In this document: positions 284 to 17,552 of the stretch, piece by piece
Layout of the letters: the number at the start of each line of letters is the position of its first letter
Numbering within the stretch: position 1 is the stretch's first letter
Source: Promethearchaeota archaeon
GTDB lineage: Archaea; Asgardarchaeota; Odinarchaeia; Odinarchaeales; JBHLKK01
Length of the DNA stretch: 19,061 nt
Direction: 5' to 3'
NCBI GenBank assembly: GCA_048939465.1
Contig: JBHLPL010000029.1
Location: 1-19,061, forward strand
Made by a program: the position numbers and the translations under genes
Notes under the pieces: model-generated
Seen by the model: only the letters and a program-made list of their open reading frames with translations
What the model was told of the DNA's origin: nothing
Database searches by the model: none

Positions 284-338
284 AATCCTATCTTATCGGT
301 ATTTTAAGTATCGAATCTCTCTAGAACATATGTTCTGA
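284..338 (+). repeat. Intergenic repeat copy 1 (tail B, palindromic)
   Basis: AATCCTATCTTATCGGTATTTT-AAGTATCGAAT-CTCTCTAGAACATATGTTCTGA. The palindrome AGAACATATGTTCT is at 323-336. Confidence 0.8.
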
Positions 339-392
339 CTTTAGGACCCCAAGGATTATGGATCTGGTCCAAACAGGAAAGCCTACCCTACC

Positions 393-707
393 TTAGACCC
401 AGCCTTCCTTTTTCAGTATGTTCATCGAGACTCTGTTGCTCGGCCCATCTCCTCTTGCAACGGAGACACCGACGTTCTCCCCAACAGCTTCCTTTATTTC
501 TGCGACATCTTTATGGGTGAATCCGGGGCAAAGAAGGATGGAATGTATGCCTTCCTCTTTCAGAAGTCTCTCTGATGCATTAATGGCTTCTGCTTGGCTT
601 TTTACAAGCCTTATGAATAGTCTGAACTTGGATGTTCCAACCTGCCACTTATGATTCTCAGGATCTGCATCCGGGGTGTGGGCGATGAAAGCTACCTTGA
701 ATACCAT
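393..707 (-). CDS. Small conserved hypothetical protein, DUF6506-like
   Basis: 104-aa ORF with an LLCPGF motif and C-terminal VARGDGPS. GAGGAG sits 9 nt upstream of the ATG at 707, so 707 is preferred over the TTG at 716. Family call is from memory. Confidence 0.7.
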   Translation of the reverse strand: MVFKVAFIAHTPDADPENHKWQVGTSKFRLFIRLVKSQAEAINASERLLKEEGIHSILLCPGFTHKDVAEIKEAVGENVGVSVARGDGPSNRVSMNILKKEGWV

Positions 708-790
708 ATTATTCAACTCCTCACGTGCTTTTTGGCTGCCATAGCCTTAATCTTACGGAATATTAAGGTCGCATCTGTTATAAGATTTCA

Positions 791-845
791 TGAAGAAGAT
801 TGAAGGTGTTTTGAAAATTGAATTCCTTCATAACATTTGCTCTAA
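791..845 (+). repeat. Intergenic repeat copy 2 (degenerate, tail B-like)
   Basis: GGTGTTTT-GAAAATTGAAT-TCCTTCATAACATTTGCTCTAA (805-845) has the same 41-nt spacing as copy 1. The left block has diverged. Confidence 0.55.
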
Positions 846-888
846 CAGAAGGGAATAGATCTAGAACATACTCTGATGTTATCACCTA

Positions 889-1836
889 CTAATAGTCAGA
901 AGCAGGAACAAAATCGCCCTGTTTTATCCTTCTTATTTCTTTCAGTTTCTCAACATACCTCTTAATAGACTCTATTTCAACAATTGAGCTCTTCTCTGCA
1001 GGAATCGAGAGTTGTTTAACCTCATAGCCTTTGTCCGCTATGTATTTTTTGGGAATCTCATATTCTATACCCAAATCTATGCACATCGATGGAGCCCAAA
1101 TCTTCGTCATTACTGCAGTTCCCATGTGGTGTATAAGACACTGAACTACTGAAACAGATAGCACCTTATCCAAGGGAATCTCCCAGTTCTCCTCTTTTTC
1201 CTCCTTCTTGTATCGGAACTTGAATTTTATCAACCTTTGAGATGTAACAAGTAGACCTCCATCTTCGGACGAGAAAATAATAGAGTAATGGACCCACTCA
1301 TCTGGACCAAGCAATTCCCTAGCCTCAACAGGTAGGGCCATTCTGAGTTTCTCTTGTTCAAGACAAAGTTCTACTCTTTGCTCATTAGGAACCCTGTAGT
1401 CACCTGAATCATCTTTTATTAGATACAGTCCGCAGTAATAGCATCGTAACTGCTCTTTTCCAGTAATAAAAGAACCACAGTAGGGACATCTATTGTGTTT
1501 TAAAAAATACGAGGCTTCTTCAACACCGAAATTCGCCTCAAAAGCCAACCTGATTCTCTCTTTTTCACGTTCCAGATACTCTGCTTCAAGTAAGGGCCCT
1601 TCTTTATCCCACCAAGCTTCGAATTCCTTCTCGTTCAGAGTGAGATAGACCTTCTTTCCCTTGATTTTGTCGATCATATTCCTGGGGAGTATGAATGATC
1701 CGCTTCGTCCAACATAATGGGAGGAAACCGTGGCAAGAATTTCATTTCCTAAAATCTCTCTGACCACACCTAGCTTCTTGTTATCAGAACTTCGGACTTC
1801 TGAATATTTCTCTGTTAACTTGGATATCTCATCCAT
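889..1836 (-). CDS. Hypothetical protein with a central zinc ribbon and a C-terminal bacterial PH-like domain
   Basis: CPYCG...CYYCG double CxxC, and GLLVTSQRLIKF...WEIPLDKVLSVSV, which resembles bPH domains. GGAGGGGG RBS precedes the ATG at 1836 (the ORF track starts at 1875). Confidence 0.75.
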   Translation of the reverse strand: MDEISKLTEKYSEVRSSDNKKLGVVREILGNEILATVSSHYVGRSGSFILPRNMIDKIKGKKVYLTLNEKEFEAWWDKEGPLLEAEYLEREKERIRLAFEANFGVEEASYFLKHNRCPYCGSFITGKEQLRCYYCGLYLIKDDSGDYRVPNEQRVELCLEQEKLRMALPVEARELLGPDEWVHYSIIFSSEDGGLLVTSQRLIKFKFRYKKEEKEENWEIPLDKVLSVSVVQCLIHHMGTAVMTKIWAPSMCIDLGIEYEIPKKYIADKGYEVKQLSIPAEKSSIVEIESIKRYVEKLKEIRRIKQGDFVPASDY

Positions 1837-1933
1837 CAAAATCCCCCTCCAGTAACTCCGTAAAGATAGTGACAAAACGATTTAATATAATTTGCCTTGC
1901 CAGAATCAGAAACGGCAATAGCCATACGATCAC

Positions 1934-1967
1934 AGATTCTCGTTTTTTTCGTTTTAATAATCTGAAT
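1934..1967 (+). repeat. Intergenic repeat copy 3 (partial/degenerate)
   Basis: GTTTT-AATAATCTGAAT (1951-1967) preceded by a T-rich block; no tail. It lies between divergent genes. Confidence 0.4.
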
Positions 1968-1975
1968 CATTTATA

Positions 1976-2425
1976 ATGCAGTGCAAGAATATTCAATTGA
2001 GTGGACAAGAAAGATTGTCCCTTAAGGCGATCAGAGTGTCTCCAAAATGCTCGTGGTGTGGAAAAAAGGGAGAGAATGTTATCCACGAAAAGTTGAGTTT
2101 CAGAGGGGCGGCTGAGGAAGCGTTTTTCTGTAATCTGGATCACTTAGAAAAAACACGAGAGTTCCTAAAATACGCCGAGTCTCATTTCTGGCATTTTATA
2201 ATGAGCATAATAGTACTTCCCGTTATTGGTATGTTAATTACATTTACGATCCTGGAAAATGTAGGTCTGCTAATTATCTTTGGAGGATTGGGTCTGACAA
2301 TCATAGTATTCCCATTTGCAACCCCCCAAACAAACAGTCTATTAGGATTCAAGAACGCAATTCGACTCATTAGAATAATCGGAGTGGCTTTAGCAGGTGC
2401 AGGGATAATTCTGCTTTTACTATGA
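1976..2425 (+). CDS. Membrane protein with an N-terminal TRASH/YHS-like metal-binding motif
   Basis: CSWCG...FFCNLDH followed by about 3 hydrophobic helices and FPFATPQT. The true start may be downstream. Confidence 0.7.
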   Translation: MQCKNIQLSGQERLSLKAIRVSPKCSWCGKKGENVIHEKLSFRGAAEEAFFCNLDHLEKTREFLKYAESHFWHFIMSIIVLPVIGMLITFTILENVGLLIIFGGLGLTIIVFPFATPQTNSLLGFKNAIRLIRIIGVALAGAGIILLLL

Positions 2426-2426
2426 C

Positions 2427-2472
2427 AATCTTTTTCGCGGCTTTTTTAGTGATGGCATGAAAACTGATTTGA
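2427..2472 (+). repeat. Intergenic repeat copy 4 (tail A)
   Basis: AATCTTTTTCGCGGCTTTTTT-AGTGATGGCAT-GAAAACTGATTTGA; begins 1 nt after the TGA at 2425. Confidence 0.65.
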
Positions 2473-2532
2473 TGTGGTTTTCCAGTAATCCTTATATCTC
2501 TGAAAAGGCTAATTCTTCCTCCGGGGAGAAAT

Positions 2533-3036
2533 ATGGCAGGATTTCGTTTTCATTATGCAGAGTTGCTCCTGTTATCCAGCACGATTATCGGAGTCCTCAT
2601 CCCCTTTTTCGGTCCTTTGACTGTATGTCTCCGTCTGGCTATATGGGATAGTTGGACTGTAATATCTGTTATGACACCTCTGACCATAATGAATATTCTT
2701 ATAGGGATTTCATGGCCCCCTCTCATTGCTGTAAGCATTACTAGGTTCCCCGAGGGACATTCAGAGCCAACCGCCCGACTAGGTCTGAGAAGACTGATAT
2801 ATTTTATTCTTCTGGTGGCCGCAATAATCCTCTTCTGGCCAGTACTTATCCGTGCATTACCAAACCTACCGGTTGGTACCAGATACATATATATACCTGA
2901 ATTCGAAGGGGGACTGATAAGGCCTTCGGCAGGAGTAAGCATAAGCTTGATCTATTTCTTCTATATCCTGATCGCTAACATCTCAGTCTGGAGTTTTGGA
3001 CATTTCAAAAGACTAAGAATAGCAAATCCTCCATAA
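2533..3036 (+). CDS. Hypothetical membrane protein (about 4 TM)
   Basis: 167-aa ORF, GGGGAG RBS, four hydrophobic segments. Confidence 0.75.
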   Translation: MAGFRFHYAELLLLSSTIIGVLIPFFGPLTVCLRLAIWDSWTVISVMTPLTIMNILIGISWPPLIAVSITRFPEGHSEPTARLGLRRLIYFILLVAAIILFWPVLIRALPNLPVGTRYIYIPEFEGGLIRPSAGVSISLIYFFYILIANISVWSFGHFKRLRIANPP

Positions 3037-3042
3037 AGAGAA

Positions 3043-3106
3043 AACCCTGTTTTGCGGGTGTTCTAATAACAGGATTTATTCCTGAACCTTTTGGAACACA
3101 TGTTAC
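3043..3106 (+). repeat. Intergenic repeat copy 5 (tail B-like)
   Basis: AACCCTGTTTTGCGGGTGTTCT-AATAACAGGAT-TTATTCCTGAAC..., followed by GAACACATGTTA at 3094-3105. Confidence 0.75.
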
Positions 3107-3241
3107 ATATGGCTAAACTCTTCTTTCGAGTGTTCCTTTTGGAACGGAAGACTTAAGTGTCTCACAGATTGGAGTACTTTATGAAGGAGTGATTCCTGCA
3201 CCAAGGCATATGTGCCAAATGACGGGGAGGGATATGGAAGG

Positions 3242-4036
3242 ATGGGGGAGAGTGAATTTACGGAAGGTGCTGTTAGTCAATTACTTTTCGTGATCGGTGC
3301 TGCTCTGACGATTATTGTCTCCCTCGTCGTACCTATTATTGCCCCAATTACTGGTCTTTATGAGACTTACATTGCTATTACATCAATCTTTGCATTGCGT
3401 CCAATAGATATTGACTGGCACTCTCCCTTAAGAGATCTTGATGGTCGACCATACTGGGCCAGCAAAATCCTTTTGCCATCAATTGTTGGAATTATCAATT
3501 CTGGGATTCTTCTTGTTTCGATCGTACTGTTAGTCAGGTCTGTCACTGGAGTGACTAAAAGATTCAATCCGAGCGATACGGGCAGGGCCACTACCAAATC
3601 CCTAATCGCTGTGGCCACTTTTGCAACAGTAATGGGCATGGTTTCTTCAGTGTTATTTCCCTCACTGATAATATATTCCTTCCGAGAGCATACAGGAGGA
3701 ATAATACCTGAAATGCCGCCTTTTAGTTACGATCTTAACATCATGGGCTGGGCTCTACTTATTCTTGAAGTGTTTTCCGGGGGACTAATGATACTGTTGG
3801 TCGGAATCCTATTTCTAGCGTATCGGAATTGCCTCGAGACCAACAGGCTCTGGTATGAAACCGGAATAATCTACATTCTAGCAGGGTTTTTCTTAATAGC
3901 TGGAACATTCTGTTTCTCTATGTTATTATCGCCCATCGGTTTGGTATTGACGATTATAGCCGGAATTGCTGGGACAGCGGGCTTTGCCATAACCAAAACC
4001 TCGACGGAGAAAGAATTAGAAGGCCTACAGATGTGA
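3242..4036 (+). CDS. Multi-pass membrane protein, DUF996/DUF973-like, paralog 1
   Basis: 5-6 TM segments; LVGILFLAYRN...LWYETGIIYILAG. The ATG at 3242 follows G-rich RBS-like sequence (the ORF track uses GTG 3212). Confidence 0.75.
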   Translation: MGESEFTEGAVSQLLFVIGAALTIIVSLVVPIIAPITGLYETYIAITSIFALRPIDIDWHSPLRDLDGRPYWASKILLPSIVGIINSGILLVSIVLLVRSVTGVTKRFNPSDTGRATTKSLIAVATFATVMGMVSSVLFPSLIIYSFREHTGGIIPEMPPFSYDLNIMGWALLILEVFSGGLMILLVGILFLAYRNCLETNRLWYETGIIYILAGFFLIAGTFCFSMLLSPIGLVLTIIAGIAGTAGFAITKTSTEKELEGLQM

Positions 4037-4058
4037 GAAAGATATCATAAGTAGCCAA

Positions 4059-4113
4059 GATCTTGTCTCTGTGCTATCTTAATGATTGGATTTCTCTCAG
4101 AACAAATGTTCCA
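4059..4113 (+). repeat. Intergenic repeat copy 6 (tail B)
   Basis: GATCTTGTCTCTGTGCTATCTT-AATGATTGGAT-TTCTCTCAGAACAAATGTTCCA; GAAC-N4-GTTC at 4100-4111. Confidence 0.75.
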
Positions 4114-4205
4114 GTATAGGAGGCATTTCGGTCCGATTTACCTTGGAAACATAGATTTAAATCGTTCAAAGTGATATTTATACACGATATTAAGGGGGAA
4201 GAACT

Positions 4206-5258
4206 ATGGATGGGGGACAACGTCTAGTCGGGCTACTAGGTCAAGTTCTCATTATAATCAGTGCTATCGTGACGATCATTTTTTCACTCGTAATGTTCTT
4301 TCCTATTCCACCCGATTCCCCCCTGCTATTCTCCATTATTCAAACACCGCCCTTTGGTCTCCCCATAATAGATTTTTACTACTATTATACCCCTTATTGG
4401 GACGTAGTAAGGGGCTGCAGTTTTAGGTATCCTGAAGAAGACTGGTTCAACTTGACTTCCGGATCTTCCTTCATCGGAATTCTTAATTCTTCGATCTTTT
4501 TCATTTCTATAATACTTGTGATAATCTCTGTTTACAGAACAGCCCAGGGATCAGGTGGGAATTCTGGAACCACAGTCAAAGCCAGAAATCTATTCATAGC
4601 TACTTTAACTTTTGCTTTATTCGCTTATTTCTTAAGTATCCTATCTCACGTGTTCTCGATGGGTATGGTTACTTATTCTTACGAACGTGTAGGATTCCTT
4701 GCAGGATTTCCAAAAGCATCATCGATCACCCATATTTACCTAAACAGTTTTGGCTGGATTCTCCTAATCTTACAGAACACTTTTGGAGTGATGATGATGG
4801 TTCTAGTTGGCGTATTCTTCAAAGCAATAGCCTCCGAAATACAAAAAAGCAGTCAACAAACCAGAAGGCTTTGGTCTGTTATAGGAAAAACATACGTAAT
4901 GTTAGGTGGAACAATAGCCTTCACTATTTTTATAACCCTTGCACAGGCAAACATGACATTCTTGGTGCCAATAATGCTAATTGTCTCAGGAGTTGTAGGA
5001 GCAACCGGCTTCATCAAATTCAAACCCACAATGTTCCCAATAATGACAGGCACGAGCGGATCTATGAGGAATACACCGGGATCGGTTATTGAAGCAGTCT
5101 ACGACACGGAGGCTTCATCAAAAGAAATTGAACTAGAAGTGCTTAAGAATGAAGGATACAAATTTGTGATAATCTCCGAAATCAAGTGTGTGAACTGCAG
5201 TTACGAGAATCCGATTGATGCTGAATTCTGCGTAAGATGCGGTCAGCGCTTGAAATAG
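4206..5258 (+). CDS. Multi-pass membrane protein, DUF996-like paralog 2, with a C-terminal double zinc ribbon
   Basis: AAGGGGG RBS; about 6 TM segments; LVGVFFKA...LWSVIGKTYVMLG; ends in CVNCSYENPIDAEFCVRCG. Confidence 0.8.
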   Translation: MDGGQRLVGLLGQVLIIISAIVTIIFSLVMFFPIPPDSPLLFSIIQTPPFGLPIIDFYYYYTPYWDVVRGCSFRYPEEDWFNLTSGSSFIGILNSSIFFISIILVIISVYRTAQGSGGNSGTTVKARNLFIATLTFALFAYFLSILSHVFSMGMVTYSYERVGFLAGFPKASSITHIYLNSFGWILLILQNTFGVMMMVLVGVFFKAIASEIQKSSQQTRRLWSVIGKTYVMLGGTIAFTIFITLAQANMTFLVPIMLIVSGVVGATGFIKFKPTMFPIMTGTSGSMRNTPGSVIEAVYDTEASSKEIELEVLKNEGYKFVIISEIKCVNCSYENPIDAEFCVRCGQRLK

Positions 5259-5275
5259 AATATAAGCTCTTATGA

Positions 5276-5326
5276 CATCTTATTTTGCTAGTGTTTTAAT
5301 AATCGGATGAAAATTAATCCAGAAGC
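5276..5326 (+). repeat. Intergenic repeat copy 7 (tail A)
   Basis: CATCTTATTTTGCTAGTGTTTT-AATAATCGGAT-GAAAATTAATCCAGAAGC. Confidence 0.85.
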
Positions 5327-5455
5327 TTTTCCCCTTGCTGCTATTAAGATAACTACTTAAATGAATCAGAATGATATTGCTCTTAGTTTGGCACGACGGG
5401 AGCAGCAAGAGCAAGATAAAGCCAAGAAACCCATTTCTAGTATTTTAGAAAACCC

Positions 5456-5973: not shown

Positions 5974-6024
5974 AATCTCTTTTTTGCTGGTGTTTTAGTA
6001 ATTGGATGAAAGCTATTTCAAGAC
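5974..6024 (+). repeat. Intergenic repeat copy 8 (tail A)
   Basis: AATCTCTTTTTTGCTGGTGTTTT-AGTAATTGGAT-GAAAGCTATTTCAAGAC; between convergent genes. Confidence 0.85.
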
Positions 6025-6080
6025 ATCATTTTCATTAACAGATGTTTTCAGGATCCCAGATGAAGAGAGACAATCGAATC

Positions 6081-6476
6081 TCAGTATCGAGCCACATCAT
6101 CTGTTACATCCAAGTCTCGACCGCACCTTATGCAAAAATCAGCATCCGCAGGGTTCTTGTAACCGCAATCAGGACATGAAAGCACAGCTGTTTCTGATCC
6201 AACATCTTCGGGTGTTGTTTCTTCACGATGGGTTGGGCTGGTGATGGAGTCAACCATAGGTTCAATTGCTTGCGTTCCTCTTGATGAAGACCAATAAATA
6301 CCGAAGACTGCCAAACCTGCAAGGACGAATAATATTAAGAACATGGAGACAATTAGGAAAATCCCCCCACGTAATCGCCCAATTCCCCCAAGTGCAAAAA
6401 ATGCCAATAGGAAGAGCACAAGTATGGCACAAATGGCACTGCTGCTCCTTTTATCGCGTGTACTCAGACTCCCCAT
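6081..6476 (-). CDS. Membrane protein (2 TM) with a C-terminal double zinc ribbon
   Basis: Two hydrophobic helices, an acidic linker and CPDCGYKNPADADFCIRCG. Confidence 0.85.
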   Translation of the reverse strand: MGSLSTRDKRSSSAICAILVLFLLAFFALGGIGRLRGGIFLIVSMFLILFVLAGLAVFGIYWSSSRGTQAIEPMVDSITSPTHREETTPEDVGSETAVLSCPDCGYKNPADADFCIRCGRDLDVTDDVARY

Positions 6477-6521: not shown

Positions 6522-6554
6522 AATCTTGTTTTGCTGGTATTTTGATAATCGGAT
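6522..6554 (+). repeat. Intergenic repeat copy 9 (core only, no tail)
   Basis: AATCTTGTTTTGCTGGTATTTT-GATAATCGGAT. The last base is shared with the stop codon of the 6554-7060 gene. Confidence 0.85.
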
Positions 6555-7149: not shown

Positions 7150-7189
7150 AATCTTGTCTTGTGGTGTTTCAACAATCGAATGAAAACTA
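7150..7189 (+). repeat. Intergenic repeat copy 10 (tail A, truncated)
   Basis: AATCTTGTCTTGTGGTGTTTC-AACAATCGAAT-GAAAACTA. The terminal CTA is the TAG stop of the 7187-7636 gene. Confidence 0.8.
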
Positions 7190-7636
7190 CAGGCCTTGCT
7201 CGATGCTGCGACCGCATCCTACGCAGAATCGTGCGTCACGCGGATTTACACAACCACAGTAAGAACACACGAGTTTAAAGGTAGAGACCGGTACGAATCG
7301 TCTTGCTCTTTTTCTACGTAGTAGTTTCCCTAAAGACTCCTTAACAGATTTTAGACGTCTATCAGAGTACGCCTTGACAGCCATTGATTCAGGAATTCTC
7401 TTCCGAAATTCTCTTATCTTCTTGACACAAAATCTTAATGCCAGGAATACTCCAGGAATCTCTGATCTCTTCTTTCCAGACCGCTTAATATATATAATTA
7501 GAAAATTCGCCATAGACACATAATTCCTGAGGCTTTCACGGGCAGCCCCTGCCTCCCATTCATAACCTAGCCCATCAAGGTATTTGGGTGTTTTGCGCCT
7601 TTTCAGTTCCATAATCCTTACCGTCTGGTTCTCCAT
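7187..7636 (-). CDS. Basic hypothetical protein with a C-terminal double zinc ribbon
   Basis: 149-aa Lys/Arg-rich ORF ending in CSYCGCVNPRDARFCVGCG. Confidence 0.75.
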   Translation of the reverse strand: MENQTVRIMELKRRKTPKYLDGLGYEWEAGAARESLRNYVSMANFLIIYIKRSGKKRSEIPGVFLALRFCVKKIREFRKRIPESMAVKAYSDRRLKSVKESLGKLLRRKRARRFVPVSTFKLVCSYCGCVNPRDARFCVGCGRSIEQGL

Positions 7637-7800: not shown

Positions 7801-7856
7801 GATCCTATTTTGATGGTGTTGTAATAATTGGATGAGGAACGTGTTTAGGAGCTTCT
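7801..7856 (+). repeat. Intergenic repeat copy 11 (tail A)
   Basis: GATCCTATTTTGATGGTGTTGT-AATAATTGGAT-GAGGAACGTGTTTAGGAGCTTCT. Confidence 0.8.
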
Positions 7857-7936: not shown

Positions 7937-8515
7937 TCAATCAAATTCCAACGGATCCCCGTATACCTCGGAATAGCAAAATTCTTGAAGACCTTTTCTT
8001 GGTCTGGGCAGAGGCTCTTCGTCAGGAATCCCTATCGCAACTAGAACGATAATGTCCATGTGTTCCGGTATCTTCAACGTCCTCTTAACCTCATCAACCC
8101 ACTCTCTTGGGCGCGACTCATAGTTGGCAATCCAGCAGGTTCCATAACCCAACGCAGACGCTGCCAACACTATATGTTCGGTAGCAATCATAGGATCCCG
8201 AGTAGCCCACGTCGCTCGGGCGCAGCACGAAACACCGGAATCGCCAAGCACCACAAAAATGGCGTTGGCGTCTTTGATGAAAGTCTGAGTGGAAGGTCTC
8301 GCAAGAAGATTTTTGGTCTTTCGATCAGTTACAACTATGAATCGCCATGGTTGATCGTTGTTAGCGGATGGCGCAAGTCGGGCAGCTTCAAGGATTTTCT
8401 TCAAGTCTTTCTTCGGAATGTCATACTCCTTGTATTTTCGGATGGATCTTCTCTTCTCAACTAGCTGAAAGAAATTTCTTGCAATATCCAGTTTTTTCTC
8501 AACCACTCTTACCAT
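7937..8515 (-). CDS. Nitroreductase family flavoprotein
   Basis: KRRSIRKY, ARLAPSANNDQPWRFIVV, LAASALGYGTCWI and IVLVAIGIP are hallmark FMN-dependent nitroreductase motifs. Confidence 0.95.
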   Translation of the reverse strand: MVRVVEKKLDIARNFFQLVEKRRSIRKYKEYDIPKKDLKKILEAARLAPSANNDQPWRFIVVTDRKTKNLLARPSTQTFIKDANAIFVVLGDSGVSCCARATWATRDPMIATEHIVLAASALGYGTCWIANYESRPREWVDEVKRTLKIPEHMDIIVLVAIGIPDEEPLPRPRKGLQEFCYSEVYGDPLEFD

Positions 8516-8552
8516 CTCTTATTTATTGGGCGTCCTATATATTGCAAGGAAA

Positions 8553-8578
8553 TATATAAATATATTGGATATCCAATA
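8553..8578 (+). promoter_or_regulatory. TATA-like box plus 16-bp perfect palindrome (putative PadR operator)
   Basis: TATATAAA at 8553-8560 and TATTGGATATCCAATA at 8563-8578, 8 nt before the PadR ATG, in the divergent nitroreductase/PadR gap. Confidence 0.6.
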
Positions 8579-8586
8579 ATTAGATT

Positions 8587-8919
8587 ATGAAAGAGAGCTG
8601 CTGTCCTGAGAAGCCGGATTGTTGCGATATGCGTGGAATGCTGGCCTTCCAGATACTCTGGCTTCTCTCCAAAAGGCCTATGAACGGGCAGGAGATAGCT
8701 GAGGAGCTGCAAAAGAGGAGGGGGGCAAAGCCAACAGCAGGAACACTGTATCCTGCGCTGAAAGATCTTCGAACAAGAGGACTAGTGGAAATGGAAAGGA
8801 AGGGCAGAAGAACAATTTATGTGCTTTCCGAGGATGGCAAAGAAGGGCTTGAAAAAGCGTCCAGATATTTCTGTAATGTTTTTGGAGAGATCTTCCAAGA
8901 ATGCGGTGGAAAAAGATAG
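8587..8919 (+). CDS. PadR family winged-helix regulator with an N-terminal Cys-rich tag
   Basis: ILWLLSKRPMNGQEI, GTLYPALKDL, RRTIYVLSEDG; N-terminus SCCPEKPDCC. Confidence 0.9.
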   Translation: MKESCCPEKPDCCDMRGMLAFQILWLLSKRPMNGQEIAEELQKRRGAKPTAGTLYPALKDLRTRGLVEMERKGRRTIYVLSEDGKEGLEKASRYFCNVFGEIFQECGGKR

Positions 8920-8970
8920 AAAGATCTGGCGGCAATCTTTTCACAGATTCTTACGGGAGATGTCAGAAAA

Positions 8971-9411
8971 TTGAGCGTTGAGGTAGATTTGAGAAGAGCA
9001 GAAGAAGATGATCTTACATTCATTAAGACACTCCTTGAGGAAAACGATCTGCCTCATGAGGATATTCCTTCCGAGTTCATTCATATGTTTAAAGGGTATG
9101 CGGGTTCCGAAGTTGTGGGCGTCGGCGGGGTGGAACTGCGCGGGAAATACGGTTTGCTCCGATCGCTTGTCATTGAAGGGCCATTCAGAGGGAAAGGATA
9201 CGGAAGATCCTTGTGCGAGAAGCTGATCGAATATTCGAGACTAAAAGGAGTAGTTGAGTTATATGCCTTGACTTCAACGCCAGACAACATCGTCAAAAAG
9301 ATGGGTTTTGAAAGAGTTGACCGACGCGATGTTCCGCAAGCTGTTCAAGAGACAAGGCAGTTTACCGATCTTTGTGCCTTGTCAGCTATCTGTTGGCGTA
9401 TGAGGTTGTAA
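8971..9411 (+). CDS. GNAT acetyltransferase, ArsN2-like (arsenic-resistance-associated family)
   Basis: GLLRSLVI..FRGKGYG, LYALT, GF..V.R..VP.AVQETRQFTDLC..SA match the ArsN2/ArgA-short GNAT pattern. Confidence 0.75.
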   Translation: MSVEVDLRRAEEDDLTFIKTLLEENDLPHEDIPSEFIHMFKGYAGSEVVGVGGVELRGKYGLLRSLVIEGPFRGKGYGRSLCEKLIEYSRLKGVVELYALTSTPDNIVKKMGFERVDRRDVPQAVQETRQFTDLCALSAICWRMRL

Positions 9412-9427: not shown

Positions 9428-9480
9428 GATCTGCTGGCTAAATGAACTGAATAATCGAATGAAGACTAACCTTAGATCTT
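9428..9480 (+). repeat. Intergenic repeat copy 12 (tail A, left block diverged)
   Basis: GATCTG...(22-nt block)-AATAATCGAAT-GAAGACTAACCTTAGATCTT; spacing identical to the consensus. Confidence 0.6.
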
Positions 9481-9609: not shown

Positions 9610-10263
9610 ATGCCGAGTATTAAAGTAGATAAAATGGATATCAATGGTTATATTGCTTACCCAGAGAATAAAGATGGTGATGGTATACTTGTTTTGCACG
9701 CTTGGTGGGGATTAAATGAATTTATCAAACAGTTCTCTGAGAGGCTAGCAGGAGAAGGGTTTTTGGTGCTAGCACCGGATCTTTACAAGGGAAAAATAGC
9801 AGATAGCATTACAGATGCAGAAAATTATAGCAACAATTTAGACCCGAGAGAAATTAGTCCCATCTTGGAAAATTCGGTTGATTTTCTCTTGAAACATCCG
9901 AATTGCAAAAGTTCCAAACTCAGTGTTATTGGATTTTCTTTGGGAGCTGGCTGGGCTACGTGGTTGGCCAATAACAAATCAAAAGAAATCGAGAAAGTAG
10001 TTCTTTTCTATGGTACTGGAGATGTTGATTTTTCTAACACTCTTGCTTCCTTCCAGTGCCACTTCGCTGAAAATGATCCTTATGAAGAAACAGAATATGT
10101 CAACTATTTCAAAGAGAGACTTCAAGAAGCGAACGTAAAGGCTAGTCATTATACTTATCCAGGTACAAGTCACTGGTTTTTTGAGACGAATCAGGTTAAA
10201 TATTTTCATGAAGAAGCTTCAAAATTAGCTTGGAAAAGAACTCTAGAGTTTTTGAAAAAGTGA
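9610..10263 (+). CDS. Dienelactone hydrolase family (alpha/beta hydrolase)
   Basis: HAWWGLN, LAPDLY, nucleophile elbow GFSLG, AENDP and YPGTSHWF. Confidence 0.9.
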   Translation: MPSIKVDKMDINGYIAYPENKDGDGILVLHAWWGLNEFIKQFSERLAGEGFLVLAPDLYKGKIADSITDAENYSNNLDPREISPILENSVDFLLKHPNCKSSKLSVIGFSLGAGWATWLANNKSKEIEKVVLFYGTGDVDFSNTLASFQCHFAENDPYEETEYVNYFKERLQEANVKASHYTYPGTSHWFFETNQVKYFHEEASKLAWKRTLEFLKK

Positions 10264-10354: not shown

Positions 10355-10409
10355 AACCTTGCTTTGCTGGTGTTTTAATGATTGGATGGGGGGTAATCTA
10401 AGAGCTTCT
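10355..10409 (+). repeat. Intergenic repeat copy 13 (tail A)
   Basis: AACCTTGCTTTGCTGGTGTTTT-AATGATTGGAT-GGGGGGTAATCTAAGAGCTTCT. Confidence 0.85.
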
Positions 10410-10569: not shown

Positions 10570-11058
10570 TCATCCAATCTCTTCCTTCCCCAAGGAACTC
10601 CTCCTTCCATTTATCAAATAGGCCAGTACTATTACGTTCATAGCCGGCACAATCACATACAATAGGAGCTTTGCAGGTAGCGAGTTCGTCGAATAGAGAG
10701 GATAGAGTATTAAGCCTATTGTGCTGGAAGGAAATACCACCGCAATCGCTATCCAAAATCCTAAATAAGGGACCAATATCATTATTGCTTTATCCCATGC
10801 CCAGATAGGTCTCTTGATAAGACCGATACCTAACAAAATGATGCATATTCCCCAGATGACTGAAAAGACGTCATAGCCTAGAGTTATTTCAAGAGGTACA
10901 TAAGGGTACATGTGTCCTCCGCCTGCAGCAGCAAAGTCGAATAGTCCGGCAACGACTGACAGTGTGCCGGATGCTATCATAAATAGGCCCAGAATCAAAT
11001 TCAAAGATTCTGATCTCTTGGAATTGGAACTCAGCCGAGGCTCCCCCTCTTCATTCAT
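10570..11058 (-). CDS. Hypothetical membrane protein (about 4 TM)
   Basis: 162-aa ORF with four hydrophobic segments, including G.GL.KR..WAW. Confidence 0.8.
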   Translation of the reverse strand: MNEEGEPRLSSNSKRSESLNLILGLFMIASGTLSVVAGLFDFAAAGGGHMYPYVPLEITLGYDVFSVIWGICIILLGIGLIKRPIWAWDKAIMILVPYLGFWIAIAVVFPSSTIGLILYPLYSTNSLPAKLLLYVIVPAMNVIVLAYLINGRRSSLGKEEIG

Positions 11059-11087: not shown

Positions 11088-11145
11088 AATATTGTTTTCG
11101 CTGGCTTTTTAATAATCGGGTTTTCTTCTAGAACATATGTTCTAA
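11088..11145 (+). repeat. Intergenic repeat copy 14 (tail B)
   Basis: AATATTGTTTTCGCTGGCTTTTT-AATAATCGGGT-TTTCTTCTAGAACATATGTTCTAA; 16-bp palindrome TAGAACATATGTTCTA at 11129-11144. Confidence 0.85.
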
Positions 11146-11219: not shown

Positions 11220-11822
11220 TTACCCCTTGGGTCTGCTTACAAAAAAGCACACCGTCCCTTCAATACTCCCAACCACAATGGCCACAAGACTAACTATCCA
11301 AAGAGCAATCTTGTACCAATCTAAGGAAATTATTAAGCAAGCCCAAGCAGAGTACGTTATCAAGTATGTTATTCCGGCAATCATATAGATTATTCCAGTG
11401 GTAATCCAAAATGGTTCATAAACGAAATACCTACGATATGCTAGGAAAAATATGCCAATTAAGGTCGCCGTTCCCCCTATGGTAACCGCTGGCATAATCA
11501 GAAACAGATAAAGATAATACCGCCAGATATTATAACCGACTATTGGGTATATGATTTGTGCAACTATATAGAGTACCAAGGCAATTGTGCCGGTAATTAA
11601 TCCGAATATTGCTCCAATCCTACCTATTGGTGAACCGCTGAATCTGCGAGATATTTCTCTGATTGAAATCAAGTACAGTATAGCGGAGATAAGAAAGACT
11701 ATTTGAGCGGCAATGCCGAACAACAATAGGAGTTCCCACATCCAAGAGAAGAACAACAAAAAAGCTGAAACCATAAGGAATATCTGACTGATGCCAGCCT
11801 GAAAAAGCTCTTTTTCAACCAA
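11220..11822 (-). CDS. Multi-pass membrane protein, DUF996-like paralog 3
   Basis: About 6 TM segments; LIGIFFLAYRR...FWITTGIIYMIAG; G-rich RBS before the TTG. Confidence 0.8.
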   Translation of the reverse strand: MVEKELFQAGISQIFLMVSAFLLFFSWMWELLLLFGIAAQIVFLISAILYLISIREISRRFSGSPIGRIGAIFGLITGTIALVLYIVAQIIYPIVGYNIWRYYLYLFLIMPAVTIGGTATLIGIFFLAYRRYFVYEPFWITTGIIYMIAGITYLITYSAWACLIISLDWYKIALWIVSLVAIVVGSIEGTVCFFVSRPKG

Positions 11823-12007: not shown

Positions 12008-12063
12008 AATCTTGTTTTGCTGATGTTTTAGTAGTTTGATTTCTTTTAGAACATATGTTCTGA
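12008..12063 (+). repeat. Intergenic repeat copy 15 (tail B)
   Basis: AATCTTGTTTTGCTGATGTTTT-AGTAGTTTGAT-TTCTTTTAGAACATATGTTCTGA; between divergent genes. Confidence 0.9.
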
Positions 12064-12187
12064 TATTAGATTCGATTTGCCAAAATAAAACCTAAAGAGG
12101 GTTTGACGGGTCTAAATCGATCAGTATAAGAAATAATACGCTATTAATGAAATGTGTAGAAAAAGCTACACAAACGTGGTGTCACAG

Positions 12188-12658
12188 ATGATAATAAGAC
12201 GGATGGAAGATAAGGATTATGAGGCCTTCAAAGGCCTTTTTGAAGAGGCTTACGGTGAATACTTGAAATCCCTGAAAGAAAGAGACCCCCAGAAATATCA
12301 AAAAGAACTAAAAGAAGAAAGAAAAGTAACCCGCGAACGATTTGAATTTTACCTTGAAACCGGAAGCAGCTTCGTTGCCGAAGATGGTGAGGTTATCGGC
12401 TATGTGGTCAGTCAAACACTGAATTTTGTGCGCGGGTTTGACAGGTTGCTTTGGATTGAGTACGTAGTCGTTAAGAAGAAGCTTCGGAGACGAGGAATAG
12501 GGCTTGCACTTCTACGTAAGCTCACAGAATATGCCAGACGATCAAATGTAGATCGAATATATACAACAATTAATCCAGACAATGTGGCCTCCATAAGACT
12601 GCATCTGAAGGCCGGCTTTGATGTCAAGAACTGGAGAACTGCTTCTTACACAGCATAA
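12188..12658 (+). CDS. GNAT family N-acetyltransferase
   Basis: WIEYVVVKKKLRRRGIGLALL and NVASIRLHLKAGF. GTGGTG RBS favours the ATG at 12188 over 12152. Confidence 0.9.
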   Translation: MIIRRMEDKDYEAFKGLFEEAYGEYLKSLKERDPQKYQKELKEERKVTRERFEFYLETGSSFVAEDGEVIGYVVSQTLNFVRGFDRLLWIEYVVVKKKLRRRGIGLALLRKLTEYARRSNVDRIYTTINPDNVASIRLHLKAGFDVKNWRTASYTA

Positions 12659-12676
12659 TTTTGACAGCAGGAATCA

Positions 12677-12730
12677 AATCTTGTTCTGTCGGTGTTCTAA
12701 TTCTTGGATGAAAACTAATCTAAGAACTCA
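12677..12730 (+). repeat. Intergenic repeat copy 16 (tail A)
   Basis: AATCTTGTTCTGTCGGTGTTCT-AATTCTTGGAT-GAAAACTAATCTAAGAACTCA. Confidence 0.9.
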
Positions 12731-12733
12731 TAA

Positions 12734-12904
12734 TCAAGAAGAATGCCAAAAAGGTTCGTCTAGCCACGAACTCTCTTCTTCCTCATAACAATCAACACAT
12801 AGATCATCAAAAGCTATGCAGGCTGGGCAGACCGATCTTCCGCAGATCGAGCACTCTACCAGATCCTCTTCATCGCAATCTAGACCACAGATCTCACATT
12901 CCAA
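12734..12904 (-). CDS. 56-aa Cys-rich acidic zinc-finger-like small protein (not in the ORF track)
   Basis: AGGTGG RBS 7 nt upstream of TTG 12904; MECEICGLDCDEEDLVECSICGRSVCPACIAFDDLCVDCYEEEESSWLDEPFWHSS, with four CxxC pairs. It fills the gap between repeat copies 16 and 17. Confidence 0.8.
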   Translation of the reverse strand: MECEICGLDCDEEDLVECSICGRSVCPACIAFDDLCVDCYEEEESSWLDEPFWHSS

Positions 12905-12932
12905 GAATATTCCACCTTGTTACATGTATGTA

Positions 12933-12984: not shown

Positions 12985-13197
12985 GTTTCAAAAATGAAAT
13001 AAAACTGAGTAACAGACATTATCCCGAAGCAGCATCAGTTGGCTGTTTGTTATAAGAAGATAGTCGAAGATGAGGAATTGCTTAAGCTGAAGGAATTGCT
13101 CGTACAGAATCGGCCTTAGTGTGGAAAGAGGACCCAGAAAAGACCCCTATAACCAAACTCGAACATAAAGGAAAATGAGGGGGGAGGCAAAAAGATT

Positions 13198-15063
13198 TCA
13201 CTTCTTTGACAAGATAACGACTGATTCATATCTAATCATCCCTTCTCTTGTTTTCTCAAGTTCTCTTGTTATCACTCTATCCTTGGTAAGAGCTATATCC
13301 TCATCTTTAGCCATTTCCCAGATTACCTTGTCATTTTTTACCTCCACATAGTTCGAATCTAGCTTGTAATGATTATTTCCAATGATTATTACGCATTTGG
13401 CCTCTCTTTTCATCACCCTACTCATTTCTTTGAGAGTTAGACGTATATCTTTGAAGAATTTGTAAGTTCTCATGGCAGCGTTTCTCCTTCCACCATTCAA
13501 GAGATTAAGAATAATGGCCCTAGCAGTCTCAGGGAGCTGTTGAAAATCGTCCTTTCTCTTCTTAATTTCGTCTATCAATTCACGCGGGTAGTGTCTTAAG
13601 TTGGGATTTCCTACCATGTTTTCATGCAATTTCTCCAATGAAGGGACGAGATCAAGTAATGTAAGTTGAGGATAGTCATTTTTGATGTAGTCCAATGCCG
13701 TGGAGTATGGAGGAGAGTTAACTATAGCGTCAATCGTTTCTGTTTTTATTCCGATATCCTCATTATTCCATTTTTTGCAGCTGTTCCTCATGTCTCTTGT
13801 ATCGCCAATGTATGTTTCTGATTTTCCAAGACGAATCTTGAGAACCTCATTGAGTTTATGGAAAAGGTATATTCTTAGGTAAAGATTCCTGAGTCTTCCT
13901 TCTAAAACATCAACGAATTCTGCCCTTCTTCTTCTAGTTAAGTCGCTTATTGTCCCACTTAAGCCTAAAAGAAGGAAGTTCTTAATCTGTTCCTCAGGAA
14001 TTGATTTTGCTATTTCATGTGCAACAAGAATCTTTTTGATATCGCCCTCTTTGTAAAATAGCTTAATCATCTTATCAGGCATTTTTTTGCTTCGAGCAGT
14101 TATTTCTTTGTAGTTATACTCAGATTCTACAAGTAATGAATCTCCTTTAGATTGGCGTTCCAGACACAAGATAGCAGCGTTTACTCTCTTCAGGAAACTC
14201 TCTATTTTCCTCCGCAAGAGTGACGTATCCAAAAATAATGAATGACACTTTACATTTGACATCAAAACTGATAACGGGTTTATCTCGATTCCTATACTGT
14301 CTAGCCCCAAAAGTGAAGCTTCAACTAATAAAGTTCCGCTCCCCGCAAAATTGTCCATTATAAGACCTTGATCATTTGGAAAGACATAATTCAGTAGTGC
14401 TCGAACCATTTTTGGATGGAATTTTCCTTTATAGGGATGCATATAATGTGTAAGGTAAAGGGAGGGTTCCTCTCTAATGGCAAAATAGTCCTCAAGACGC
14501 TTTCCTATCGCCATTGTCGAGGACGCAGGAATCCTATAGAGTCTATTCGTTAAAAAATCAAAGAGTGAATTTACATTCCTATCAACTTCTTCTTCGTTCC
14601 TGCTCAGCTTTGAAATGTACTGTGATTTTTCAAGAAAGTATTGATGTACAATAAACCTGAAGAGGATGTGGTTCCCACTTTTGAAGTATTGCACATTTTT
14701 GCCCAGGATACCTTCCGGAAAAATCTTATTAAGCAGTCTCTCCGGGTCTTCGCTACTTTTTATTACTTGGAAGAACTCTCGAGTGTAAGCAAGCTTTCGT
14801 ACAAGGTTCGAGACATTTTGGATCTCCTCGGTTGTTCCATAAAATCCATGAAATTCTCCATAAGGCAGCTCATGTGTAAGAATGTCCTGAATACGTATAT
14901 TATCAGTTGTAAAAAGCTTAAGCGGCTCTTCATTCATTACATCTACGAAATTCCTTACTCTTCCTGTTTTACCAAACAGACTTGTTAGTTCTAGTTCAGC
15001 GAAATCTACTTCATGTTTCTCCTTTATACTGTTGGAAAGCTTGAAGTAATAATGGACGGCCAT
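13198..15063 (-). CDS. Amino-DNA methyltransferase, probably N4-cytosine, alpha motif order, with a long N-terminal extension
   Basis: HPYKGKFHP, motif I DNFAGSGTLLVEA and a later motif IV NSPPY. About 200 extra N-terminal residues. The start is ATG 15063 or TTG 15069. Confidence 0.85.
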   Translation of the reverse strand: MAVHYYFKLSNSIKEKHEVDFAELELTSLFGKTGRVRNFVDVMNEEPLKLFTTDNIRIQDILTHELPYGEFHGFYGTTEEIQNVSNLVRKLAYTREFFQVIKSSEDPERLLNKIFPEGILGKNVQYFKSGNHILFRFIVHQYFLEKSQYISKLSRNEEEVDRNVNSLFDFLTNRLYRIPASSTMAIGKRLEDYFAIREEPSLYLTHYMHPYKGKFHPKMVRALLNYVFPNDQGLIMDNFAGSGTLLVEASLLGLDSIGIEINPLSVLMSNVKCHSLFLDTSLLRRKIESFLKRVNAAILCLERQSKGDSLLVESEYNYKEITARSKKMPDKMIKLFYKEGDIKKILVAHEIAKSIPEEQIKNFLLLGLSGTISDLTRRRRAEFVDVLEGRLRNLYLRIYLFHKLNEVLKIRLGKSETYIGDTRDMRNSCKKWNNEDIGIKTETIDAIVNSPPYSTALDYIKNDYPQLTLLDLVPSLEKLHENMVGNPNLRHYPRELIDEIKKRKDDFQQLPETARAIILNLLNGGRRNAAMRTYKFFKDIRLTLKEMSRVMKREAKCVIIIGNNHYKLDSNYVEVKNDKVIWEMAKDEDIALTKDRVITRELEKTREGMIRYESVVILSKK

Positions 15064-15323
15064 TTCCAAGGTTCACCAAACAGCTCTTCCTGTTGAATCT
15101 CAACCCTTTTTACTCCTTATTTATGATGAAGAATATTTAAACACTGTTGAGCTAGCTAAAATAAGAATGATGTTTAATCGAAAAAGAGACCGATAGATTT
15201 GTGTTCCTATGACAGGCCTTCTCCGATTTTCTGCTTTATCAGCCGCGTCTTCGCTTGAAAGACCACCCTGCCGTTATCCTCGCATTGCCAGCACGGTTCT
15301 TTTTCCTAAGAATTGAAACCCAA

Positions 15324-16169
15324 TTAATCTTCGACAAATGAGTTTAGTCTTTTAGTTTGGCTCTTCATGGTCTCGGTTGTCTCACTCAGTAAGGGAAACG
15401 CCTCCAATGCCTTTTTCATACTTAACGCTGCGATTCCTGGAGGCGGTCTAGCAAATGACCCTGCAAATCTTGCTAATGATGCACGTTTGAGAAGTACCGC
15501 TGTCAAATGCGCAAATGTCAGAAGCGTATTCCGTCTGCCGTATGCTTGGTTTACGGTATCATAGCCCAGTGTGGAATATTTCACATCTTCATTCAACGCA
15601 ATTACATCCGTAAAATACAGGAGAACATCCAGCGGTATTTCTCCGACTTCAGGAACTAGCATTCTGATTCTGTCGATAACAACCGTCGGTGGACTGAGTC
15701 TCCATATCCCAGGTTCAGTTTCCTTGTGGTCGAGCATAAAGGCATTACGAACTAAGAGACTGCCCATCAGCTCTAATGCAAACTCGCTTTTCTTGCCCAT
15801 TTCCAACAAAAGGCCAAACATATCTTCAAAAGTAAGGCTTCGCCTAAGTCTGTTTTGACCGAGAAAAATCACAGGAAACATATCGTTTGGATTGTTTGTT
15901 TGTACGCCGTCTTTTGTGGTGCATTGTTTGTAATCTGGGGCGGCTTCTTTTCCCGGTTTTCCAAGACAAACCTTGTTTTCGCCAATAACATATAAGTTTT
16001 GATAGGTCTTTGAGGATTGACTGAGACCCTTTGGCCATGATTTGGCTTCTTCTATGCTCTGCTTTCTGCGTGGAGCAGAGAACTTATTCAGTCTGAGCTC
16101 AGATGGGATTTTAAGTGCGTCTCGTATCTTTCGCTTAATTAAATTGTTCGCGGGTTGCTCATTAATCAC
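15324..16169 (-). CDS. Hypothetical protein, putative restriction endonuclease partner of the methyltransferase
   Basis: 281-aa soluble ORF directly upstream of and co-oriented with the MTase, with no repeat between them; possible D-x-K in NEDVKY. Function is inferred from context only. Confidence 0.55.
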   Translation of the reverse strand: MINEQPANNLIKRKIRDALKIPSELRLNKFSAPRRKQSIEEAKSWPKGLSQSSKTYQNLYVIGENKVCLGKPGKEAAPDYKQCTTKDGVQTNNPNDMFPVIFLGQNRLRRSLTFEDMFGLLLEMGKKSEFALELMGSLLVRNAFMLDHKETEPGIWRLSPPTVVIDRIRMLVPEVGEIPLDVLLYFTDVIALNEDVKYSTLGYDTVNQAYGRRNTLLTFAHLTAVLLKRASLARFAGSFARPPPGIAALSMKKALEAFPLLSETTETMKSQTKRLNSFVED

Positions 16170-16268
16170 GACTCCCCCCCAACGTTTTTATTCCTTAAAC
16201 ACTAGTTTTGGTTGATGCCTGTAACTATGAGTTTTTCCTATATGAAACAAACTCTTTTAAAACAAAAG

Positions 16269-16323
16269 AATCTTATTTTGTGGCGTTTTAATACTTGGAT
16301 TTCTTTTAGAACGTATGTTCTAA
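16269..16323 (+). repeat. Intergenic repeat copy 18 (tail B)
   Basis: AATCTTATTTTGTGGCGTTTT-AATACTTGGAT-TTCTTTTAGAACGTATGTTCTAA; between divergent genes. Confidence 0.9.
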
Positions 16324-16505
16324 TGACTGAGACCCATTTTGCTTTCCAAATCCTCCGGTCCACAAACATCAAAATCGTTATAAACAGTTACAACAAAACA
16401 TCACGCCAGGGGGGGTTAGTGCCACCACATGCTGCCCCCTCTTCGTAGTTATCAGAAAGAAAAAATAACTCCGTTCTCCCATAATGAAATCAAGGGGGAC
16501 TCTCA

Positions 16506-17477
16506 ATGAAAGCTGTTGTTTACCGCGGGCCGAAAAAAATGAAACCTGAGGACGTACCGGAGCCTGAACCAGCTCAAAATGAGGTCTTGGTGAGGTTTAA
16601 GGCTGGCAGCATTTGTGGTACTGATATTCACTATTATAGAGGTGAGTGGAAGAGTCTAAAGATAGGAAGAATAATAGGGCATGATGCTTCGGGGCAGATT
16701 ATGGAGACGGCTCAAAGAGCGGCAATTGTCCCTTTTGTATCCTGTGGAGCCTGTAGATACTGCCTAGAGGGAAGACCCAATGTGTGTGAGAAATGGAGCA
16801 TAATGGGCTTCAACAGAGACGGATGCTTCTCTGAATTAATAGCAGTGCCGAGAGAGAATCTGCTTCCAATACCTAACAACGTCACTTACGAAGAGGCAGC
16901 GATACTTGAGCCAGTCGCCCTTGCGCTTCACACTTTTGACCTGCTTCAGCCAAGGTTTGGGCAATGGGCAACGATAGTGGGGCAAGGGCCCATAGGGCTT
17001 GTTATGACACAGGTAGCGAGAGCTTCAGGGTGCAGAGTCATTGCTATAGATTTAGAAGATTACCGATTAGCAATATCTGAGAATTATGGAGCAGAGGTAT
17101 GCATTAATCCAAAGAGTCAGAACGTTGTGGAAAAAGTGAGAACGATTACCGACGGGGGCTCGGGCATCGTTGTTGAAGCCGCCGGCAAAAAGGAAACTGT
17201 AGAACAGACTTCCAAATTAGTGAGTCGGACAGGAAAAGTAGCGCTGGTAGGTGAATCTTCAGGCACAATGAAATTCGAAGGTGAAGCGACTTTCTTCGGC
17301 GTATGGCTTAATCCCCTGAAATATGCTCTTGCGCTGGATTCGCTGTCAAAGGGAATCATAGATGTTAGAGGTTTGATTACTCATAGATTTCCTCTGACTG
17401 ATTTCGAGAGGGCGATTGAGACAGCCACCGACACTGAAAAGAGTCCTGTAAAGGTGATTCTTCAAGAGGAGCATTAG
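16506..17477 (+). CDS. Zinc-dependent medium-chain alcohol dehydrogenase (threonine/sorbitol dehydrogenase-like)
   Basis: ICGTD, GHD, structural Zn site CGACRYCLEGRPNVC, LEP and Rossmann GQGPIG; AAGGGGG RBS. Confidence 0.93.
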   Translation: MKAVVYRGPKKMKPEDVPEPEPAQNEVLVRFKAGSICGTDIHYYRGEWKSLKIGRIIGHDASGQIMETAQRAAIVPFVSCGACRYCLEGRPNVCEKWSIMGFNRDGCFSELIAVPRENLLPIPNNVTYEEAAILEPVALALHTFDLLQPRFGQWATIVGQGPIGLVMTQVARASGCRVIAIDLEDYRLAISENYGAEVCINPKSQNVVEKVRTITDGGSGIVVEAAGKKETVEQTSKLVSRTGKVALVGESSGTMKFEGEATFFGVWLNPLKYALALDSLSKGIIDVRGLITHRFPLTDFERAIETATDTEKSPVKVILQEEH

Positions 17478-17498
17478 TCAAAACCAAGAATCTTGAAG

Positions 17499-17552
17499 AA
17501 TCTTGTTTTGCTGGTGTCTTAATAAATGGATAAAAACTGATCTAGGAACTCA
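17499..17552 (+). repeat. Intergenic repeat copy 19 (tail A)
   Basis: AATCTTGTTTTGCTGGTGTCTT-AATAAATGGAT-AAAAACTGATCTAGGAACTCA; preceded by the tandem AAGAATCTTG x2 (17486-17505). Confidence 0.9.

Follow-up and report, generated by a model that had tools for sequence, protein, structure and literature searches.

A 19,061-nucleotide stretch of DNA from an archaeon of the Odinarchaeia, called the window here, carries 19 same-orientation copies of a short sequence, the cassette site, which separate 18 small and mostly single-gene units; comparison with relatives reveals that such units have been gained, lost and shuffled, with breakpoints inside the site. We think it probable that the window belongs to a chromosomal gene-cassette array of one Asgard genus, in which a dedicated site-specific recombinase from outside the array carries out conservative crossover between direct asymmetric sites. 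The window is the whole of contig C58 of genome G000 (1.96 Mb, 91% complete); two other species of the same genus are represented by genomes G001 and G002, which are 78% and 82% complete. Including sister metagenome-assembled genomes (MAGs) and further contigs, 91 sites were mapped, of which 89 are distinct. An actin-like gene is present in G000 (contig C38), and the tubulin of a congeneric genome has as its best structural relatives the PDB 7EVB-series tubulin-like proteins (E 1e-216), which we take to be OdinTubulin; we infer that the host lineage is an OdinTubulin-bearing Asgard archaeon of the Odinarchaeia.

The motif was found on the + strand at all 19 positions listed in an earlier sequence-only reading of the window, with identities to the 33-nt consensus from 19/33 to 31/33. 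A weight matrix trained solely on 49 sites of other genomes, so that the copies were not scored by construction, recovered 14 of the 19 (14.5–48.7 bits), and over the whole of G000 it gave 19 matches of at least 20 bits as compared with none in three shuffles. The five copies that it missed (791, 1934, 2427, 9428 and 12933) are decayed. At 1934 and 2427, relatives have a site beside the same genes, while the copy at 791 is a half site that has lost its left arm but retains the right half and the tail, a full site being present downstream of the same gene in G001. The copies at 9428 and 12933 have weak cores (19–20/33) and a conserved tail and lie at synteny breaks; these two are probably genuine sites.

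Nucleotide alignments of window units to relatives end at sites. In cross-species pairs of sites, the upstream flank alone was shared 33 times, the downstream flank alone 21 times and both flanks twice; for window sites the corresponding counts were 13, 11 and 0. Gene order is therefore not conserved across the repeats of the window, where 24 pairs share one flank and none shares both. Upstream identity, taken per position, stays high as far as the core and beyond it is down to background; downstream identity shows the reverse pattern, so that the breakpoints fall within the 33 bp. When contigs were turned so that sites read +, 84 of 84 homologous segments aligned the same way, although paralogs inflate both this count and those of shared flanks; the direction of the result is independent of them. 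Units move, but never flip. The prediction of a gene-cassette array in an archaeon is borne out by these comparisons.

The gain or loss of units was seen directly between near-identical strains of a sister species. Over 2,991 bp, contig C177 of G002 is 99.2% identical to JBHLMS010000072, and the latter carries 1,143 bp extra, which comprise two complete units. In the short allele (C177) there is a single hybrid site, whose left part and flank correspond to the left boundary of the extra DNA and whose right part and flank correspond to the right boundary. Such a hybrid fits crossover, not target duplication. This bears on the proposal that the units are giant spacers, inserted by an integrase that duplicates the site each time, as in clustered regularly interspaced short palindromic repeat (CRISPR) adaptation or with a target-site-duplicating transposon. 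The repeat length and single orientation do resemble those of CRISPR repeats, yet the empty allele is a hybrid and does not copy both flanks, units take their site halves and tails with them, and neighbouring copies resemble each other no more closely than distant ones do (0.64 versus 0.65). Moreover, Cas1 had no match in the incomplete genomes of the genus, and an Rfam scan of the window gave no match, CRISPR included. We regard this proposal as highly improbable.

It is more improbable still that short-read assembly through the repeat has merely simulated the shuffling. All arrays do sit on fragmented MAG contigs, and the key short allele has its junction at 50 bp from one end of the contig, where misassembly is possible; the long allele is present in several Logan assemblies and the short allele in one. 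Against this, independent assemblies of other samples repeat the window order across sites as well as the sister-species orders, the copies are too short and too divergent to collapse, and the differences lie between species, whose genes are 65–90% identical in these comparisons.

The sites and units of the window are as follows.

284..337, + strand: site 1, core and palindromic type B tail; weight matrix 14.5 bits
393..716, − strand: DUF6506 cassette gene; homolog in G001:C33 with other neighbours
791..843, + strand: site 2, decayed to a half site: right half with a B-like tail
889..1875, − strand: cassette gene, 328 aa, zinc-ribbon/PRC-like
1934..1965, + strand: site 3, 2-nt deletion variant in common with the G001 site after the same gene
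1976..2425, + strand: cassette gene, 149-aa membrane protein; present in each of the three species, with differing neighbours
2427..2478, + strand: site 4, type A tail
2533..3036, + strand: cassette gene, 167-aa membrane protein
3043..3075, + strand: site 5; weight matrix 35.1 bits
3212..4036, + strand: cassette gene, 274-aa membrane protein
4059..4112, + strand: site 6, type B tail; found by weight matrix
4206..5258, + strand: cassette gene, 350-aa membrane protein with zinc ribbon
5276..5328, + strand: site 7, type A tail; weight matrix 40.6 bits
5456..5932, + strand: GNAT acetyltransferase cassette gene; among the two units gained or lost between the near-identical strains of the sister species
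5974..6027, + strand: site 8, type A tail, convergent genes on either side; found by weight matrix
6081..6476, − strand: cassette gene of the zinc-ribbon membrane family, whose members have multiplied as separate cassettes across the genus
6522..6554, + strand: site 9; weight matrix 48.7 bits
6554..7060, − strand: BsuPI domain cassette gene
7150..7190, + strand: site 10, 32-nt core; found by weight matrix
7187..7636, − strand: cassette gene, 149 aa, zinc ribbon
7801..7853, + strand: site 11; found by weight matrix
7937..9411: three-gene unit of nitroreductase (−), PadR (+) and GNAT (+); intact module in G001 with other neighbours
9428..9480, + strand: site 12 (probable), weak core, type A tail, synteny break
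9610..10263, + strand: dienelactone hydrolase cassette gene; the unit with the lowest GC (36%)
10355..10408, + strand: site 13, type A tail, convergent context; found by weight matrix
10570..11058, − strand: cassette gene, 162-aa membrane protein
11088..11144, + strand: site 14, type B tail; found by weight matrix
11220..11822, − strand: cassette gene, 200-aa membrane protein
12008..12062, + strand: site 15, type B tail, divergent context; found by weight matrix
12152..12658, + strand: GNAT acetyltransferase cassette gene
12677..12730, + strand: site 16, type A tail; found by weight matrix
12730..12900, − strand: small Cys-rich (zinc-finger-like) open reading frame (ORF), conserved in G001:C85
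12933..12985, + strand: site 17 (probable), weak core, type A tail, synteny break
13198..16169, − strand: two-gene unit, type II DNA methyltransferase and conserved 281-aa protein
16269..16322, + strand: site 18, type B tail; found by weight matrix
16506..17477, + strand: zinc alcohol dehydrogenase cassette gene
17499..17552, + strand: site 19, type A tail, convergent context; found by weight matrix
17605..19061, − strand: next unit, with a radical-SAM-type gene and one half of a 341-aa gene that continues on C103

As the sequence-only reading had it, most units hold one gene (16 of the 18, in units of 256–3336 bp) and the strands are about evenly used (10 genes on +, 11 on −). Its account of the cargo also stands in large part: three GNATs, nitroreductase, PadR, dienelactone hydrolase, zinc alcohol dehydrogenase, type II methyltransferase, DUF6506, BsuPI and zinc-ribbon membrane proteins were confirmed as families. 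For its ‘endonuclease-like’ gene (15324–16169), upstream of the methyltransferase, that name found no confirmation: family and fold searches with the 281-aa product gave no match, which is no proof of a new fold. This protein has 246 homologs, invariant K-G-E, N-DM and E-K motifs and a confident structure model (predicted local distance difference test score, pLDDT, 93), and it is possible that it is a restriction enzyme of undescribed fold.

The core is 33 nt long in 40 of 75 sites and 32–34 nt in 64 of them, in keeping with the length first proposed, but the whole site is longer: about half of the sites have a tail of ∼20 nt, of one of two conserved types (type A in 28 sites, type B in 21), and flank comparison with relatives shows that tails go with the downstream unit. 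The information content of the core is ∼36 bits and the mean pairwise identity among copies ∼65%. Within the core, an internal direct repeat, TGTTTTG/TGTTTTA, 11 bp apart, is significant. The weak GTTTTAA/TGAAAAC dyad of type A sites is not (p 0.8). All sites on any one contig share one orientation, and in the window they stand between tandem genes (11), convergent genes (4) and divergent genes (3). The sites are thus not promoters or terminators of the adjoining genes, since all three contexts occur; a search for terminators at the sites gave no match.

The site is also distinct from attC, as the sequence-only reading had held. No pair of attC boxes (RYYYAAC...GTTRRRY, 40–160 nt apart) occurs on either strand of the window, and there was no excess of hairpin folding around 88 sites (mean z −0.22 to +0.30, four window sizes, both strands). 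Integrons and clusters of attC sites lacking integron integrases (CALINs) have been reported in archaea, Asgard archaea included, with attC boxes, hairpins and co-oriented cassettes (Ghaly et al., 2022; PMC9668308). It is extremely improbable that the window is such an integron remnant with very divergent attC sites. The cargo type, the unit size and a toxin–antitoxin cassette would suit a remnant, as would the modal crossover position described below, which follows G and precedes TT as in integron core sites; nevertheless, boxes and folding excess are both wanting, genes lie on both strands, and no IntI was found at arrays or in G001 and G002.

Matches to the core outside the window in G000 are confined to a few small contigs, whose accessory genes are of a similar kind (C103, C147, C144, C74 and C131). 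The array continues onto C103 in the same orientation, because the right end of the window and C103 encode two halves of one 341-aa gene. The same site occurs in same-orientation arrays in G001 (30 matches) and G002 (12), with at most two weak matches in other genera, and more arrays were found in sister MAGs. Allowing up to three mismatches, the pattern was present in 3 of 400 genomes of the phylum, all in this genus, and in none of the 397 other Asgard genomes. Exact-pattern scans had zero matches in genome and viral collections that hold no near relatives, and a metagenome scan found one contig; viral matches to the zinc-ribbon membrane family carried no site. In one sister MAG the array starts where core methyl-transfer genes are followed by the first site, and another array ends ∼190 nt before a tRNA gene. 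On a Joint Genome Institute (JGI) contig, a lone antitoxin/PIN-toxin pair lies between two sites.

By contrast with the core, one part of the type B tail is widely dispersed. The tail ends in a perfect palindrome of 16–18 bp, TAGAACATATGTTCTA (in the window at 322–337, 11129–11144, 12047–12062 and 16307–16322), which forms part of about a quarter of cassette sites and whose sequence matches the Gram-positive-type SOS box. Alone, it also occurs at G000:C135:19096, C31:2871, C138:92774 and elsewhere; there are 22–23 copies per genome in all three species, as against 0–3 in other Asgard genomes, and they occupy orthologous core intergenic positions in all gene contexts, for example between uvrA and uvrC and between convergent genes. 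This dispersal, ∼22 times per genome at fixed positions between core genes, speaks for a regulatory element, or one resembling repetitive extragenic palindromes (REP) or miniature inverted-repeat transposable elements (MITE), lying in a variable island where breakpoints coincide with it because both are intergenic. It is the separate palindrome alone that is dispersed, however; the core is restricted to arrays on few contigs and is not spread evenly through the genome, copies on any contig all face the same way, homology switches inside 33 bp and not randomly in the spacer, and a precise hybrid site exists. We consider this explanation very unlikely, and largely refuted already.

The occurrence of the palindrome in about a quarter of cassette sites may link the array with a DNA-binding factor of the host. 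LexA was rejected as the binder, no S24 peptidase having scored above the cut-off. A 92-aa ORF flanked by two palindromes in both species (L200:3095-3373 in G001:C10; G000:C139:20015-20293) belongs to a large archaeal family and has what we read as a Cas2/VapD-like start; its product is a candidate for an autoregulated palindrome binder or partner. In addition, a 4-kb block translocated between species has one end at a palindrome (G000:C28:4872 versus G001:C36:12035 and C6:9192) and, in this single case, lands beside a cassette site in G001.

Within the core, the crossover is placed in the right-hand two-thirds, in a window of positions 17–27. From diverged pairs, its likelihood has a mode at core positions 18–19, after G with TT next, with a wide bootstrap (about 17–32 at best); the near-identical pair places it at 25–27, or requires two events, and finer mapping did not settle on one position. 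We propose that the ends of a cassette would lie at the midpoints of two successive sites. It would open with the right part of a core and its tail and close with the left part of the following core, enclosing either a single gene or a small, self-contained module, which would face either way and have a promoter of its own. A dedicated site-specific recombinase, presumably acting on double-stranded DNA, would cut out, re-insert and exchange cassettes by conservative crossover between two directly repeated asymmetric sites. The excised unit or units would form a circle with a single hybrid site, which could re-enter at another site in the same polarity. The enzyme would come from outside the array, being either encoded in unassembled DNA or supplied in trans by a mobile element. 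As for its family, a tyrosine recombinase is a tentative first guess by analogy with integrons and pdif modules; a textbook member is disfavoured because the core has no dyad.

Besides the contig-end position of the short allele, several observations weigh against the involvement of a dedicated recombinase. The copies cluster in arrays, as expected, but the adjoining recombinase or transposase that was to accompany them was not found: tyrosine and serine recombinases, IS110, Cas1, HUH transposase and reverse transcriptase were absent from every array, and in the array start of the sister MAG no recombinase lies between the core methyl-transfer genes and the first site. Eleven family and profile searches of the three genomes (PF00589, PF02899, PF16795, an alignment of local integrases, PF00239, PF07508, PF02371, PF01867, PF01797, PF04986 and PF00078) detected no recombinase family in G001 or G002, at their completeness of 78% and 82%, and no enzyme family common to the three array-bearing genomes. 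PF00239, PF07508 and PF01797 were solely in G000, away from sites; PF02371, PF04986 and PF00078 were in none of the three. G000 has two tyrosine recombinases and one serine recombinase, with no site on their contigs. The best dyad in the core is not significant (p about 0.18), and the crossover estimates from diverged and near-identical pairs disagree. Finally, same-species contigs around the window have the same order, with no sign of present-day activity there.

Several candidates for the enzyme were rejected. The integrase on C80 has as its neighbour a thermosome gene 86% identical to that of Bathyarchaeota BA2, and G000 has two other thermosome genes; this contig (L013) is probably Bathyarchaeia contamination of the genome bin. 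The C43 integrase and the C114 serine recombinase are on contigs with no site and have no cluster members in sister MAGs. C43 (L012) carries an integrated element with a tyrosine integrase at tRNA-Leu and a phage replisome-organiser gene, and C114 an integrated element in which a large serine recombinase adjoins a HerA/Sir2-like defence pair. On G000:C38, a LAGLIDADG-like gene stands free between the actin gene and a solo site (L008:9509-10984); it was judged to be cargo because it is confined to G000 and absent from G001 and G002.

The same negative searches, the lack of a dyad and the differing crossover estimates would follow if no dedicated enzyme were needed, units being shuffled by general homologous or microhomology recombination between repeated protein-binding elements, in the manner of promoter early stem-loop (PeSL) cassettes (PMC2839356). 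The hybrid site, too, could have arisen by two crossovers, each in its own window, and no mutation is then required. We nevertheless find this alternative unlikely. A 33-bp match at ∼65% identity, the level of likeness among the copies, is a short and poor substrate for general homologous recombination; the site is indifferent to gene direction and has no hairpin, unlike PeSLs; and one site per boundary with fixed polarity across dozens of unrelated genes is left unaccounted for. Site-specific recombination accordingly remains the reading that we prefer: that the array was built by a site-specific recombinase is an inference, though a well-supported one, no such enzyme of the families searched having been found at any array or in G001 and G002.

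In its behaviour the array resembles integron arrays and pdif modules without belonging to either. Like integron arrays and CALINs, it consists of tandem one-gene units with a same-orientation site between them, carries accessory, GNAT, defence and toxin–antitoxin cargo, has a lineage-specific site family, and shuffles cassettes at the site with polarity fixed; CALINs, too, often have no nearby integrase. It differs in having no attC boxes, single-strand hairpin or detected IntI, in a site that is a 33-bp sequence-conserved core plus tail, and in genes that are not co-oriented and have their own upstream regions. The integron attI, which occurs once per integron next to intI, is an asymmetric site of double-stranded DNA in which short direct repeats precede a G|TT crossover. 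The spaced direct repeats of our core may, as motifs, resemble those of attI, whereas the site here is at every boundary with no integrase near.

Acinetobacter pdif modules are described as flanked by inverted dif sites of 28 bp, with an 11-6-11 layout and inner palindrome, on which XerC/XerD act (PMC6449649). Here, too, genes on either strand are flanked by short sites and modules reappear in new contexts, and the supply of the enzyme in trans and the double-stranded site would be shared with our proposal. In contrast, the core has neither a significant dyad nor an 11-6-11 layout, sites on each contig are all direct repeats, and no XerA-like gene, nor XerC/D, was found in the three incomplete genomes of the genus. 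The PeSL cassettes of T4-like phages consist of a promoter and a stem-loop terminator (Arbiol et al., 2010; PMC2839356). As in the array, the repeats occur where the genome is hypervariable, modules are shuffled at them and no dedicated recombinase is known, but our site is chromosomal, in an archaeon, lacks a stem-loop and takes no account of gene direction. CRISPR arrays likewise have ∼33-bp direct repeats in one orientation with unrelated DNA between, whereas the units here are whole genes and the repeats are degenerate and recombine as halves, with no Cas1 match.

A partial literature search found no published description of the site or the array. Provisionally, we conclude that the array functions like an integron but is not a member of the integron, pdif, CRISPR or PeSL families; the conclusion rests on the array having failed the tests of each family. 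A stronger version, which we hold to be possible but rather doubtful, is that it is a third independent gene-capture platform beside integrons and pdif, with an asymmetric double-stranded site that has no dyad, genes in either direction, a recombinase family missed by current profiles, and possibly the help of a palindrome-binding factor.

Array cargo overall is accessory and defence-like. Defence-like cargo includes HerA with a NurA-like partner and methyltransferase, PDC-M57A/B-like genes, ParB-DUF488 and a TIR-TPR protein (L004:1-6358, that is G000:C147; L045:7327-8751; L046:91-1184). TnpB/IS605-type elements are present at L053:619-1761 and on G000 contigs C70, C55 and C105, one of them having inserted into a stretch of G001 that bears sites. 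Away from the large arrays, small insertions among core genes are marked by a 32-nt subfamily of the site whose members have longer flanks in common (L048:8974, 18236 and 19565; L010:8030). A dispersed MITE-like repeat of ∼230 bp (L056:1008-1247), with more than 12 copies in G000, is unrelated to the cassette site.

To our knowledge, no platform other than integrons that stores genes and changes their order cassette by cassette has been well studied. If our proposal is correct, the archaea closest to eukaryotes would have in this array a second such platform, chromosomal and built on an unrelated site, which would imply that this strategy evolved more than once; attC-based tools would miss such a platform. 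If the shuffling is instead plain homologous recombination, the array would be a PeSL-like variant. The 33-bp site provides a defined substrate with which to fish for a possibly new recombinase, useful in genome engineering, and the list of cassette genes is likely to be enriched in defence and stress functions. For Asgard genomes, the array is a visible route for gene gain and paralog amplification, as in the zinc-ribbon membrane family, which has multiplied as cassettes.

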